Of a DNA stretch of 64,000 nt, positions 47,224-64,000 are shown in pieces. The notes under the pieces are model-generated. The model was not told the DNA's origin, did no database searches, and saw only the letters and a list, made by a program, of their open reading frames with translations. This stretch comes from a virus. Made by a program: the position numbers and the translations under genes. How positions within the stretch are numbered: position 1 is the first letter of the stretch; every line of letters begins with the position of its first letter. The DNA lies in IMG/VR virus record IMGVR_UViG_3300028025_002044, positions 1 to 64,000 of that record, one strand, 5' to 3'.

Positions 47224-50200
47224 TTAATACTTTATCCTATAGGGGATTTGGTTTGCGTTTAGCTTTTGAAGCAGGTCAGTGATTTCGGCAGAGCTCTTGG
47301 TTTCGCTTAGTTTAGCCATATCAATCGATATGGCATCTTCATCGTTGTCCTGAGACTCGGCCAAGCTGGGGTAGTCAATGGCTTTACGGCTATCATCCAA
47401 CTCTACTGACTGCATAAACGAGTACCCCATTTTGGTGAGCTTGTCGCTGTGATAAATCTTCCTGTTAGTTAGTTTGTTAGCAAAGGCAAGTAGTCCGGTG
47501 GCTAGGTGACGGCGTTGGTAAGGTTCGTTGGTGTAGATACCGTCAATGTACATTTCATTTGCTAGACCGTCGGCCATAGGGTCGCCAATCTTAGTGCCAA
47601 ATGTGGCTACAGCGCCGGCTGACGGATTTGCTGGGTCATAAGCATCTATCCATATGTATGTATCTAGCGCCTGCGGGTCGTAGTCACTTTCCTTCAAAGA
47701 AACTTTGGCAGATAGTTTATATGGACGGCCGTACCTGTCTTTGTATGACGCAGTTATTTTGGTGGTACTCTCTACAACCGTAGGAGTCTCGCGCTCTGTT
47801 GTAGTAGCACCGTCGAAGTCTATGTCTAGATTTTCGGTAGCCTTTTCCATTATATTATCTTCACGCATGGCAGGCACCGAGAACCAGGAATCGTAGTGCT
47901 GGCGTCTAATAGATTTTAGGTTCTTTACCCTATTTGAATTAGAACCAAACTGTTTTTCGGCTTCGGCAATCATGTCTGCATATGACTTCAACTCGGCTTC
48001 TTGATAGTCCTGCAGCGGAATACCGTAAGGGCCTGAAGTAAAGTCATATGCTCGCTCTTTGTCTAGGTCTAGGTTCGGGTCAGCCGGGTCGAAAGGCTCG
48101 CCGCCAAATTTCATTAGCATAGGTGCAGCACTGTCAGGGCTGTCTGATTCAGTGGCAGCGTCTGCAAATCGCTTAGCGTTTCGGTCTACCTTAACATCCG
48201 TCATTCTAACTGGACGCTCTAGATATAGCCCATCTAGGCCCTTTACGCGGCTTAACGCAGTGTAAAGCTGGCCTGTAGCAAATGCACCATCTCCTAAATC
48301 AACCTTTAGATTGCTAATGGTTTTGCCTTGAAGCTTGTGGATAGTAGCTGCCCAGGCGAGCATCAAAGGAATCTGCTCATAGGTTGCTTCAGTAAATGGA
48401 GTCAGTTTATTGGTGACCTGGTTGCTAATGCTGTCTACTTGCTGACTGGCATCGTAGCCAACTTTATCCCACATGCTAGGGTAGACGTCATAAACGTTGT
48501 CTCCAACTCTAACCTTGACGTGGTCCTCTTCGAGAGCTACCACTTTTCCGATGGTTCCGTTTACCCATCTGCGAGCGGTCTTCTGGCCCTGACCAGACTC
48601 CTGATCTACGCTGTCTTTAGAAGAGCTAGGGGTGTCATTCCTGGTAAACATAACCTGAGCCCCAACCTTAAGGAAGAGCTTTTCCGGAGCAGGAAGCATG
48701 TCAAATGCTGGCTGTCCGGCACCACCAAACTCTCCGGTATATGTCTGAGATTTGACGTTTCCTAGCTTGTCCATCTCCTCTTGGTTAATTTCGTCGGCTA
48801 GAGCGTTAGTTGTAACGGCGTAGATTAGGTCATTAACCGATTGAGCCACTGGACGCATGCCAGCTTGATTGATGAAATCTAAGTCTTCCTGAGTAAATCT
48901 GCCTACTCGGATGTTGTTTAGGACCTTCTTAAATTCAGGGTCTGATTGACGGAACACTTCGCTAAGTTCATAGACTTCTAGAGGCTGGTCAACCCAAGCT
49001 CTGGCGTCAAAGAAGAACATGCTCCTGTAGTTCTTCTCCATGTAGTCCTTGAGCTGAACGTCGCGCTTACCTACGAATGGAGACAGCTGGTATACGTCAC
49101 CAAAACCAACAAACTGCACACCACCGAATGGTACGAATGGCTTGCCTTTTACATTCCTCAAAATTCTGTCCATAGCGTCTAGTAGGTCCGCTGAAACCAT
49201 GGATATTTCGTCTACAACTAGGGTGTCTAGAGCCGCTAGGGCAGCCCTAATTTTAGCCTTCTTTTTCGCATTTCCAATAATTAGCTGGCTTGCAGGAGTC
49301 TCGCCGTACACAATACCAGGCTTAAGTCCAAACAGAGAGTGGATGGTCGTGCCGCCAACATTTTCGGCTGCAGTTCCAGTGAATGACACTACAGCAATAA
49401 TTTTTTCAGTAAAGTCACGGAAGAATTTAAGCAAGAATGATTTACCGGTACCGGCTTTACCGGTAATAAATACAGGGCTCTTAGTGCTTTCTAGGTGGTT
49501 GTATAGCCACTGTTGCTCCGCAGACAGGTCGCCTTCTACAGTCGCCCGCTGTTCTTTATTTTTAACTGCAGGAATTTGGATAGGCGAGCCGTCTAAGTTA
49601 TTCTTAGGTACATAGTTCTCTAACTTAGACTTATCAAATCCTTCTGGAATGTCTATGCCTGACACAGGCTCGCCGTTGGCAATTCTCTTATCTAGAAGTG
49701 CCCCTAGAAGATCTTTCTTTACGGCCTCGACTAAGTTAGCGTCTATGAGCGGAAGCACACTCCAGAGTTCTCTAGCACGCTGGTCTGAAACCACACCTGA
49801 CTCTTGAAGAATGTCCTGAACTGTTCTTAGGTCGGCAGTAGTTGGAGGGTTTACAGTAACCTGAGTCTCTATAGAAGGAGAAGTGTTCTCCTCCCCATTC
49901 TCGTACTTCATAAACATTGGAGTGGTTTTTGGCTGGTCTCGTAGGTAGTCCAAGAACTGGTCTACGGTCATGTTGCCGACGTTTTCAGGGACAGGTCGCT
50001 GCTGGGTGACAGGAGCTTCCTGTATAGGAGCGTCCGATCTTTTTCTAGGGGCGGCCATTTTGTCAGCTTTTTTGCCGTCAATTTTTTTAGCTCGTAGGCT
50101 GTCAAACTTAATTAAGTATTCTGCTAAGTCTTTAGTTCCAGACTTGGTTAGGAACTTGCCCCTGACGGACTCGAGGACAGCTTTGTACACTGGCTCTGGT

Positions 50201-62176: not shown

Positions 62177-64000
62177 TTATGCAGGAGTTATGGTCGCATC
62201 TCCATCTAGATTTTTCTTTAGCTCGGATAGAATTCTCATTCTGTCTCCAAGGCCGGTCTCACCGCTTAGGGTTACGAACCAGTACTTGTTCCTTCCGTGG
62301 AAGATGAAACTAAATGGACGCTTCTTACCTTCCGGTACAATTCCCGTACCCTTGATAATTTCTTTGTTGGCTGCGGTGTTACCCATAAGGATTACGCTCT
62401 CACCTTCGATGCGATAGTTAACGCCCTTGCCAAGTCCGCCAGAAGTTCCGTCTTCGCCAGTAATCTCGCCCTGAGGCATTTCAATAGCTTCTACGGTCTT
62501 AGCTTCGGTTTCTTCGTTCAGGTCAACCATGCCATCGACAGATGCCCAGTATCCACCAAGAATGTGCTCTACAGCCTTGCTAGCTAGCGATGCAGCCTCG
62601 TGAAGAGCGTTAGGGTCGCCCTTTAGCCACTCAGCCCATGACTGAACATAAGCAGCAACGTTCTCAATTGAGGTGTTGACGTTCATCATCTGAGCAAGAA
62701 TTGCAGAGCCAATCTCAGCGATAAGCTCCTCACGAGCACGGACATCCTTGTGGGTGCCGTAGTTGGCTAGTAAGTCCTTGCGGTCTAGACGGTTCTGGTG
62801 TCCGGTGCTGTGGGTGAGCTCGTGGAACAACGTGTCTAGGTGCTCTTCAGTGCTGCCGAACTGGTTTCTTAGAGGCAGTCTAATGACGTCCTCTGTAGGG
62901 CTCCAGTAAGCACTGTCCTGAGGGATGTACTCGATTGCAGGCTTGTCGGTGTAGCTATCAAGAACAATGCCTTCAACCTCAGAGATTGCAGGCGGGTCCT
63001 TGCGAACAAGCTGAGGAAGCTCTATGCCTTGGATTTCGTCTTCGTTGTAAACGATGTCTAGGCCCATCTTGGCAAACTTCTTAGTGACCGTTCTGGTCTC
63101 TGTCTTAGTCTTGTCAGGGTTGTCTGGGTCCGGAACCTGTACTTGCTCTTCCTTGTCGTACTTCTTGGTCGACACGAAAGTAATAATTACGCCAGGGTCC
63201 TTACCATCTTCACGCTTGTTGACGTAACCGCCAAGCTTGCTGATGGCGTTCTTGGTGTACCACCTGGTCCCCTGGTACTCGCGGTTCATACCGACTGCCA
63301 TAAGAGCTAGCAGGTTCAATCCTCGGTAGACGCGTCCGGTAGCACCCGAAGTAGGCAAGAAGCCTCCTTCTCCGGTCCAAGGCTTCTTCCAAGGAATAAT
63401 TCCCTTCTCCATGGCCTCGAGAATGCTGGCAACAACCGTGCTAACAACTTCCTGGTTGCTCTTGTTGACGCTCTTGATTTCTTCAGTCAAGTCAACCTTG
63501 ATAGGGTTTTCGTCCGAGCCTAGCTCGCCTGGCTTAGGAGTTACTGCCTGGTTGTCATCAATGTTGTCGGCCGCATCGAATGCCATAAGCATAAGGTTTT
63601 CGGTCTGAGTGCCATCTGACTCGCCTAAGCGTAGAGACAGTTCTTCAATCTTGGCTCGTAGCCCTAGAATCATGCTTCTATTCTTACCTGCTGAACCACC
63701 AAGAGAACCGGTCGGAGAGCGTAGCGCCCATCTCTCAGCGTAGGTTAGAAGTTTAGGGTCTAGGTTTCCGCTGAGCAACTGCTGAAGTGCTTCTTTAGCT
63801 GTAGCGAGATTACTCTGGTCTATCTTTTTAAAGTAATCCGGGTCAGCTTGGATATCAGCAATTTGCTGCTCTAGTGAAGAAATCTGTCTCTCCAACTCCT
63901 CATCGGGGAGGTAGGCAACTTCTCTATCAGCCGGCTTCCGAGAGAGTTCTCTCTTAGCTTCGTCAATAGACTTCTCAATGTTGGCAATCATTTGCTCGTT
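62177..64000 (-). CDS. ArdC-like protein (ssDNA-binding N domain plus zincin MPTase); 5'-truncated, probably the C-terminus of a larger protein
   Basis: PWKKPW, TGRVYRGLN, TLFHELTHSTGH..RLDR, REELIAEIGS; the frame stays open to the window edge. Confidence 0.88.
   Translation of the reverse strand, partial: NEQMIANIEKSIDEAKRELSRKPADREVAYLPDEELERQISSLEQQIADIQADPDYFKKIDQSNLATAKEALQQLLSGNLDPKLLTYAERWALRSPTGSLGGSAGKNRSMILGLRAKIEELSLRLGESDGTQTENLMLMAFDAADNIDDNQAVTPKPGELGSDENPIKVDLTEEIKSVNKSNQEVVSTVVASILEAMEKGIIPWKKPWTGEGGFLPTSGATGRVYRGLNLLALMAVGMNREYQGTRWYTKNAISKLGGYVNKREDGKDPGVIITFVSTKKYDKEEQVQVPDPDNPDKTKTETRTVTKKFAKMGLDIVYNEDEIQGIELPQLVRKDPPAISEVEGIVLDSYTDKPAIEYIPQDSAYWSPTEDVIRLPLRNQFGSTEEHLDTLFHELTHSTGHQNRLDRKDLLANYGTHKDVRAREELIAEIGSAILAQMMNVNTSIENVAAYVQSWAEWLKGDPNALHEAASLASKAVEHILGGYWASVDGMVDLNEETEAKTVEAIEMPQGEITGEDGTSGGLGKGVNYRIEGESVILMGNTAANKEIIKGTGIVPEGKKRPFSFIFHGRNKYWFVTLSGETGLGDRMRILSELKKNLDGDATITPA

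Follow-up and report, generated by a model that had tools for sequence, protein, structure and literature searches.

A lineage-specific linker word at the module joints of two giant phage proteins, a candidate processing code for capsid-loaded polyproteins

Introduction

Do the two giant multi-enzyme proteins encoded among the head genes of an uncultured tailed phage act as single chains, or are they divided at a short word that recurs between their modules? The locus that raises this question lies in a DNA stretch of 64,000 nucleotides (positions 1 to 64,000 of the IMG/VR virus record IMGVR_UViG_3300028025_002044; hereafter, the window), which is the head-morphogenesis module of the phage. 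The complete record spans 76,449 bases with 47% G+C and is estimated to be 57% complete. On its minus strand the genes follow the order portal (phrog_776), a 733-amino-acid (aa) Dps/ferritin-like protein, giant polyvalent protein 1 (giant 1), two small open reading frames (ORFs), giant polyvalent protein 2 (giant 2), a 1551-aa prohead protease protein and the major head protein (phrog_777).

A first-pass annotation of the window had noticed four close copies of P-M-[LF]-M-x-[FYM] in giant 2, with looser variants there and in the neighboring reading frame, and had interpreted them as protease sites releasing individual enzymes from one precursor. From the sequence comparisons described below, we lean slightly towards the view that the word, redefined as [K/R]-P-x-[L/F]-M-x-F-[D/E/G], marks processing sites in two capsid-loaded polyproteins.

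Results

A short word recurs in both giant proteins and is conserved as a peptide

Giant 2 comprises an N-terminal region, an RNase_T exonuclease (aa 2000-2193), two HEXXH zincins, an ADP-ribosyltransferase (ART; aa 3110-3270), a ParB-like DGNHR segment, a PIF1 helicase (aa 3949-4162) and a weak GNAT match. Pfam matches were obtained for RNase_T, ADPrib_exo_Tox and PIF1; PIF1 helicases were also recovered by PDB profile search, and helicases were the sole matches when a profile of the whole-giant alignment was compared with the PDB. Pfam matches in giant 1 were RNase_T (aa 1399-1585), UvrD (aa 1732-2400), ArdC-N and MPTase. The ArdC protein, taken in the first-pass annotation for a separate neighboring gene, is actually the C-terminal 604 aa of a 3115-aa ORF (record 62177-71524), and full-length homologs of 3089-3282 aa confirm the long ORF. 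The homologs used for comparison, all from metagenomes, were six for giant 2 (P0004-P0009; 56-62% identity) and seven distinct ones for giant 1 (P0016-P0022; 53-83% identity).

The strict pattern PM[LF]M.[FYM] was found four times in giant 2, against 0.002 copies expected, and none of 5000 composition-preserving shuffles reached four. The pattern P.[LF]M.[FY] occurred three times in giant 2 (0.05 expected) and four times in giant 1 (0.034 expected; 0/5000 shuffles), and three of the four giant 1 matches lie beyond the window, outside the sequence behind the original observation. Unbiased pattern enumeration ranked P.FM.F or P.LM.F at the top in the homologs P0004 and P0017, and the Pro-bearing word was absent from all other ORFs of the record. 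All eight copies located in the first pass translate in frame on the minus strand as written, and the four strict copies are indeed far above chance.

Comparison with the homologs of about 60% identity changed the definition of the motif. The first Met of 'PM[LF]M', which had given the impression of a double-Met core, is not conserved, and the conserved core is P-x-[LF]-M-x-[FY]. A logo of 85 instances from 15 proteins showed [K/R/N] at -4, Pro at -3 (69%), [Q/S/M] at -2, [L/F] at -1 (93%), Met at 0, any residue at +1 and Phe at +2, followed by acidic residues or Gly; neither Pro(-3) nor the acidic/Gly preference at +3 and +4 was imposed by the search pattern. As defined by these alignments, the motif is the extended form given in the Introduction. 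Across 53-83% identity the word is retained in seven columns of the giant 2 alignment and five of the giant 1 alignment, a test on which the first-pass idea had been staked, and all five giant 1 sites are kept in P0016-P0022. Several sites are conserved islands in linkers that otherwise drift, with column identities of 0.22 upstream and 0.88 in the motif at site 1, and of 0.38 and 0.74, respectively, at site 7.

Individual sites were also reassigned. The looser variants LQLMAF and PAAMSF are both conserved sites in the homologs. VISMAS (aa 2951), proposed as the site before the ART, was rejected because it is not conserved, the homologs reading LINVAE or LINLAE there; the site at this joint, overlooked on first reading, is FQFMNF (52144-52161). 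PMLMRM, between the two zincins, is confined to this genome. In five of the six homologs, P[QEA]FM[DQ]F (in one of them QEFMDF) is found about 30 aa upstream, at a position where this genome has a degenerate QEFTDY, so that the linker looks like a case of site turnover, with the loss of one site and the gain of another about 30 aa apart.

Conservation was seen in the residues and not in the DNA. Synonymous codons differ at all 12 sites, as the first-pass annotation had reported for its copies: all four CCN codons are used for Pro, four different codons for Leu and both codons for Phe, and codons vary also at the sites of the more distant lineages B and C described below. No Shine-Dalgarno-like sequence was present within 18 nt upstream of any of the 12 Met codons. 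Internal translation starts, an outcome that the first-pass annotation had itself named as damaging, were rejected on these two grounds together with DNA-level repeats, and its claim of selection on the peptide was upheld. Judged from homologs and codon usage, the motif is real, conserved and selected as a peptide.

The word lies at module boundaries

The sites lie 34-130 aa ahead of, or just behind, the Pfam edges of RNase_T, ART, PIF1, UvrD and ArdC-N. In an AF2 model of giant 1 aa 2440-3115 (mean pLDDT 71), the two sites are found between confident domains, in segments of pLDDT <50. A model of giant 2 aa 2331-3500 built from seven sequences reached a mean pLDDT of 45, good only for rough zincin boundaries and uninformative after residue 783 (ART, ParB and PMFMQF); here PMLMRM lies in a stretch of pLDDT <50. 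Usable structural context covers two of the 12 sites. By a crude composition proxy, the flanks of 7/12 sites are disorder-prone (above the 80th percentile).

The largest module indel of the giant 2 family abuts a site. In three homologs (P0004, P0005 and P0007), an insert of up to 683 alignment columns lies just ahead of site 1 (window 60577); in the sequences without the insert, the 681-683-column indel comes within 1-3 columns of the site, and the overall range is 1-6 columns upstream. These inserts indicate that modules are gained or lost at the word boundary. The insert of P0007 contains a further word, PIFMDY. Where it could be assessed by Pfam edges and low-confidence linkers, the motif is located at module boundaries, as had been claimed for the domains of giant 2.

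Distant lineages carry other words at the same joints

Giant 1 proteins that are more distantly related lack the Met-Phe word, and in each of them a word of its own recurs. With the present phage assigned to lineage A, the primase-bearing lineage B uses [I/V]-E-[E/D/Q]-M-[A/S]-[T/S]-P in 4-6 copies, or I-[D/S/N]-[K/R]-M-[A/S]-S in a sublineage; lineage C1 uses G-P-S-P-K-[E/Q]-E in 4-6 copies, and lineage C2 uses (G)-P-S-Q-N-R-E. A 17-sequence alignment placed these dialect words at the same joints. The joints concerned are the one leading into the exonuclease (in lineages A and B only), the one separating it from the helicase, the one behind the helicase and the one leading into ArdC-N. At the last joint, the second Met of LMLMAF and the Met of IEEMATP occupy the same alignment column. 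Different words at the same joints are the pattern expected of cleavage sites that co-evolve with a phage-encoded protease.

The two giants of one genome share their word in three lineages, A, C1 and C2. In the IMG/VR loci of lineage C, a second, downstream giant uses the word of the first: GPSPK[EQK]E is found in both giants of L021 and L026, and [PS][SN]QNRE in both giants of L020. Among the remaining ORFs of at least 150 aa that these loci encode on the same strand as the giants, those upstream of giant 1 included, none contained the lineage words. For lineage B, concordance between giants is hinted at by two EEM[AS]T copies in P0050 and one in P0010, proteins for which a shared genome with a lineage B giant 1 is not established. 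A word that is uniform within a genome and different between lineages points to a phage-encoded, trans-acting reader evolving with it. These comparisons suggest that the reader is phage-encoded and fast-evolving, for which a site-specific protease would be the simplest identity.

The head proteins carry a separate motif

No copy of [LFA]M.[FY] was found in the prohead protease protein, the capsid protein, the Dps-like protein or the portal, where 0.87 would be expected by chance. The same proteins (window 40350-47170, minus strand, and record 71528-75485) contain 14 copies of [ILVM][TV]A[AS][AGS] against 0.56 expected, with seven in the protease protein, four in the major head protein, two in the Dps-like protein and one in the portal; both giants have none. 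This head motif stands at matching positions in the portal N-terminus and in the capsid protein of this phage and of DSL-LC01, a metagenome-assembled Actinomycetia phage (in DSL-LC01 as PLTAAAAQ and ALVASGGH, respectively), and it is also present in the portal-position ORF of lineage C loci. Its distribution indicates that [ILVM][TV]A[AS][AGS] is probably a prohead-protease code separate from the code between the modules.

A single head-motif copy ([RD]ALVASAS, RALTASAS) was observed at about aa 53-66 of giant 1 in L005:1580-11428, L021:5214-15287 and L020:9980-19702, and giant 1 of the present genome reads AIIASAS at aa ~47-55, beyond the window. In T4, internal proteins carry a targeting propeptide that is removed by the prohead protease. 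By analogy, a head motif near the giant 1 N-terminus would be consistent with a capsid-targeting propeptide of ~55-65 residues that the prohead protease cuts off.

Candidate readers of the word

The first-pass annotation had proposed three kinds of protease, namely the HEXXH peptidases of giant 2 itself, the ArdC MPTase and the prohead protease. All three are present in lineages A and C, and the MPTase is found in giant 1 of A, B and C. Their divergence was compared with that of the words, which between C1 and C2 differ at 3 of 7 positions in phages about 70% identical. The prohead protease domain has kept 70% identity from A to C and 85% from C1 to C2; being conserved across dialects, and given the different motif of the head proteins, it is disfavored as the reader. 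ArdC plus MPTase, the best-conserved part of giant 1, is 60% identical between A and C and 89% between C1 and C2, and is weakly disfavored because it is so similar in two lineages with different words. The zincins diverge fastest of the three candidates: C1 and C2 share 51% identity there, and the A and C sequences can barely be aligned. From these identities, the prohead protease appears disfavored, the ArdC MPTase weakly so, and the zincins of giant 2 emerge as the best candidate of the three.

Zincin 2 is 30% identical to zincin 1 over 95 aa, and HEXXH and E-x-F-A-E are invariant in both zincins of seven sequences. Neither gave a Pfam match even at E 1. With phmmer, zincin 1 matched the anthrax lethal factor core (PDB 2l0r) at E 0.3, with HEXXH, SYG and E.FAE aligned in register, and zincin 2 had no PDB sequence match. 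The best Foldseek matches were lethal factor (E 1e-3, probability 0.85-0.97) and PPEP-1 (TM 0.5, target-normalised), for a query model with a mean pLDDT of 45. The tandem zincin module is rare: a search of 1.84 billion proteins gave eight cluster representatives, of which five are giants (3315-4963 aa). A predicted complex of zincin 1 (giant 2 aa 2400-2620) with a 41-aa linker of giant 1 (aa 1660-1700) scored 0.00 and counts neither way. Different PPEPs read different hexapeptides, and PPEP substrates often carry several copies. According to the abstract of PMC12828418, the lethal factor/PPEP family reads about six residues of extended peptide, which matches the size of the linker words. It is possible, although we would not expect it with confidence, that one or both of these lethal-factor/PPEP-like (MEROPS M34-like) zincins read the motif in cis and in trans.

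Discussion

A proposed processing model

If the words are processing sites, the two giants, encoded between the portal gene and the prohead protease and capsid genes, would be packed into the head and delivered with the DNA; this packaging step is drawn from gene order and from published work on polyvalent proteins (passages of PMC5512222). The prohead protease would probably trim N-terminal peptides, and a phage-encoded sequence-specific endopeptidase other than the prohead protease would recognise the linker word of about six residues. A cargo-borne zincin may then cut at each word, either before or after ejection from the head. The 4715-aa protein would give about eight pieces, as expected from its seven sites and in line with the seven to eight products first proposed, and the 3115-aa protein about six, for about 14 fragments in all. 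Most pieces would be one enzyme module, such as the exonuclease, the helicase, the ART with the ParB-like segment, the GNAT-like module or ArdC. As for the register, a cut between [L/F] and Met, with the invariant Met at P1', is our guess; Met at P1' is favored by the Met that lineages A and B share in one column and by the general selection of hydrophobic P1' residues by zincins.

A further and tentative proposal, which we hold to be possible but not probable, is that two orthogonal proteolytic codes operate in one virion, with the conserved prohead protease reading Phi-[T/V]-A-[A/S]-[A/G/S] and a cargo zincin reading P-x-[L/F]|M-x-F, where the bar marks the cut. The prohead protease would then trim head proteins and the N-terminal targeting peptides of the cargo, and the zincin would liberate a dozen enzymes joined in the two polyproteins, perhaps not until these have been injected into the host. 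Word and reader would diversify together between phage lineages, as the polyprotein sites of RNA viruses do.

Alternative explanations

A non-proteolytic role of the word is the most serious rival, although we regard it as unlikely. In that case a phage-encoded partner, such as a packaging chaperone or scaffold, an inner-capsid anchor, a component of the ejection channel or a modifying enzyme, would dock on each linker and the giants would stay intact. The conserved linker words, the selection on the peptide, the concordance within genomes and the divergence between lineages fit any phage-encoded reader, and some polyvalent proteins are packaged or transferred uncut (N4 vRNAP, ArdC and TraC1, in passages of PMC5512222). 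However, no candidate partner stands out, and the only fast-diverging shared component found is a protease-like zincin with an intact HEXXH...E; six-residue words between unrelated modules, with a site lost and regained in one linker, are moreover typical of polyprotein cleavage sites. Cleavage at the words by the prohead protease, the ArdC MPTase or a host protease instead of the lethal-factor-like zincins is less probable still. Such enzymes do have precedents, since prohead proteases cut ejection and internal proteins at consensus motifs in T4 and the phiKZ-like SPN3US (PMC9026906 and PMC10052503), MPTase autoprocessing has been proposed (passages of PMC5512222) and phage 80alpha uses a host protease (PMC5744158). 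Against the prohead protease stand its similarity between A and C despite unrelated words and a head motif, conserved across lineages, in proteins that lack the Met word; against the MPTase, its 89% identity between C1 and C2. For a host protease, the concerted change of the word in two proteins between the close relatives C1 and C2 is hard to explain, and no Prp gene is present in the record. The host protease of 80alpha is Prp, and the L27/80alpha site loosely resembles the motif. Prp-type host cleavage was dropped as a candidate, as no Peptidase_Prp (PF04327) was found in the record and the register does not fit.

Two explanations that do without a peptide reader are both very improbable. 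Were the word made of recombination junctions or chance-homogenised linker repeats that serve module shuffling, it would have no peptide function, and it is true that modules differ between homologs and that the largest indel abuts a site. Yet there is no nucleotide-level conservation, the codons for Pro, Leu, Phe, Gly, Ser, Lys, Glu and Arg vary in the lineages examined at the DNA level, and a word of 18-21 nt whose third positions vary offers too little length and similarity for homologous recombination. We give even less credence to internal translation starts by which modules would also be made as separate proteins. Every conserved site of lineages A and B does have the Met, just ahead of modules, but besides the missing Shine-Dalgarno-like sequences (0/12 sites), the flanking Pro(-3), [LF](-1) and Phe(+2) keep their amino-acid identity while their codons vary. 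The lineage C words have neither a Met nor a nearby start codon, and a ribosome could not account for lineage-specific words. A sliding-clamp binding motif (Q-L-x-L-x-[LF]) was dropped without a formal test, as positions 1 and 2 of the word are not conserved in the homologs.

Several observations weigh against the processing model or its choice of reader. C1 and C1b share a word, yet their zincins are 44% identical, below the value for C1 and C2; on these identities, zincin divergence tracks dialect imperfectly, and the zincin is the most permissive candidate and not a proven one. A 1660-aa stretch of giant 2 (aa 270-1930) has no site. The homologs' P[QE]FM[DQ]F site maps to the helix that ends zincin 1 and not to an open linker, in the weak pLDDT-45 model; the AF2 models did not place the motifs confidently in cis, and the flanks of 5/12 sites are not unusually rich in disorder-promoting residues. 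No obvious recurrent word was found in the zincin-bearing P0051-P0053 or in the zincin-less giant of DSL-LC01 (3289 aa; no HEXXH and no Met word) with a motif finder that is weak on degenerate words. A second finder (BLOSUM cliques) missed the motif of the present genome itself, so its silence on P0050-P0053, P0010 and DSL-LC01 means little. By megablast and tblastn against cultured phages, only relatives of the helicase and portal were found, plus the metagenome-assembled DSL-LC01, and the giants had no cultured match. That the words are cut at all, by which protease and at which bond, is what we infer. Of the original interpretation, the parts that endure are the placement at boundaries and the selection on the peptide, to which sharing by both giants and the dialects are added; its motif definition, the VISMAS site and its gene model of the neighbor were replaced.

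Relation to known systems

Autoprocessing of polyvalent proteins by their zincin (MPTase) was proposed by Iyer, Burroughs, Anand, de Souza and Aravind in 2017 (PMC5512222). The passages of that paper on cleavage, processing, linkers and recognition give no recognition sequence for such processing, and none was found in a wider literature search. Both giants resemble the polyvalent proteins described there in combining unrelated effector domains in one polypeptide, in their virion-gene context and in their embedded zincins. They differ from those proteins, as described in these passages, in having an explicit, positionally conserved word that has lineage dialects and is shared by two giants, and in that the ArdC MPTase is not the best candidate reader.

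In prohead processing, the T4 motif is [L/I]-x-E and the phiKZ-type motif is A-x-E. As with T4 gp21 and SPN3US gp245 (PMC9026906 and PMC10052503), the cargo here would be capsid-loaded, judging from gene order, and a short consensus is shared by many substrates. In the T4/phiKZ type the same motif occurs in capsid and scaffold and is read by the prohead protease, whereas here the capsid, portal and protease proteins lack the word. Co-variation of the motif with the prohead protease between lineages, as a code of that type would imply, was not observed.

Like members of MEROPS M34 (lethal factor and PPEP-1, -2 and -3), the zincins combine HEXXH with a Glu about 40-50 residues downstream in an E-x-x-A-E helix. 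Unlike established members, they have no Pfam match, a sequence match of only E 0.3 and a poor fold model, so that membership is not established; they also sit inside their presumed substrate, a phage cargo protein, and no word has a Pro-Pro bond. In picornaviruses (3C) and potyviruses (NIa), an embedded protease cuts a short word at every joint, and the word differs between lineages. The present case is unlike these RNA virus polyproteins in that it concerns a DNA phage, virion cargo and not the replication proteome, and a zincin and not a chymotrypsin-like enzyme; no homology is implied. The arrangement is a variant of two known kinds, polyprotein processing and polyvalent proteins.

The locus supplies exact conserved positions (12 in one genome), three other dialects in relatives, a shortlist of proteases and the head motif as an internal control. 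If the words are cleaved, DNA phages would use polyprotein strategies for an injected arsenal, and the loading of many enzymes into a capsid by one targeting signal would have an explanation. Module boundaries, and hence effectors, would become readable from sequence in uncultured phages, and the dialects would represent a family of naturally orthogonal protease-word pairs. Intact linkers, on the other hand, would suggest that the conserved words serve a hitherto unknown system for docking capsid cargo, and that would be new as well.

Other features of the locus

The coordinates of the sites, candidate readers and genes are listed in Table 1.

Table 1. Sites, domains and genes of the two giant proteins and the prohead protease protein, with positions in the window.
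Feature	Position in protein	Window coordinates	Strand	Basis or reading in homologs
Giant 2 (giant polyvalent protein 2, P0001)	4715 aa	47224..61371	-	ORF and translation, Pfam, homologs
Site 1, LQLMAF	giant 2 aa 266-271	60559..60576	-	P[QS][LF]M[AQ]F
Site 2, PAAMSF, 62 aa before RNase_T exonuclease	giant 2 aa 1933-1938	55558..55575	-	[SA]AM[SQE]F in 6/7 sequences
Zincin 1, HEYGH at 2532, EKFAELF ~46 aa downstream	giant 2 about aa 2408-2612	53536..54150	-	
Site 3, PMLMRM, between zincin 1 and zincin 2	giant 2 aa 2637-2642	53446..53463	-	this genome only
Zincin 2, HEYGH at 2863, ENFAEYF downstream	giant 2 about aa 2691-2938	52558..53301	-	
Site 4, FQFMNF, 34 aa before ART	giant 2 aa 3071-3076	52144..52161	-	P[AS]LMNF, FQFMNF or LSLMSF
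Site 5, PMFMQF, after ParB-like segment	giant 2 aa 3486-3491	50899..50916	-	PMFM[QE]F, QMFMQF, PMLMQF; PMFAEF in two
Site 6, PMFMKY, ~130 aa before PIF1 helicase	giant 2 aa 3818-3823	49903..49920	-	x-x-[LF]-M-Q-F
Site 7, PMLMKF, between helicase and C-terminal GNAT-like module	giant 2 aa 4417-4422	48106..48123	-	[PL]S[LF]M[EM]F
Giant 1 (giant polyvalent protein 1, P0012)	3115 aa	C-terminal part 62177..64000; ORF to base 71524 of record	-	translation, Pfam
Giant 1 sites PPFMRF, PQLMAF, PQFMAF, PQLMSF	giant 1 aa 553, 1350, 1677, 2491	beyond window	-	
Giant 1 site 5, LMLMAF, 43 aa before ArdC-N	giant 1 aa 2644-2649	63578..63595	-	[PL]MLMAF
ArdC-N ssDNA-binding domain	giant 1 aa 2692-2815	63080..63451	-	Pfam PF08401, E 1e-17
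MPTase-PolyVal zincin, alternative candidate reader	giant 1 aa 2869-2979	62588..62920	-	Pfam PF18818, E 5e-28
1551-aa head protein (P0003) with prohead protease domain	domain at about aa 820-1260	42515..47170	-	

The portal is 73% identical to that of DSL-LC01 and 60-66% identical to portals of several Microbacterium phages, and on these identities the host is probably an actinobacterium. Directly after the portal gene lies the 733-aa P0013 (record 71528-73729, minus strand), an unusual gene for a head module, whose product contains a ferritin/Dps-like domain (PF00210, aa 22-153), Cys-rich segments and DUF5824. Within the 1551-aa protein, the prohead protease is preceded by ~800 residues of unknown function and followed by a coiled-coil-like tail; in DSL-LC01 three separate genes, annotated as 'capsid maturation protease', correspond to this region. 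An R-D-x-x-G-[RQ]-F-A-E-M-G segment is located near the N-terminus of both giants (within aa 1-265 of giant 2, window 60580-61371, and at aa ~190-210 of giant 1), and it may represent a common head-targeting module.

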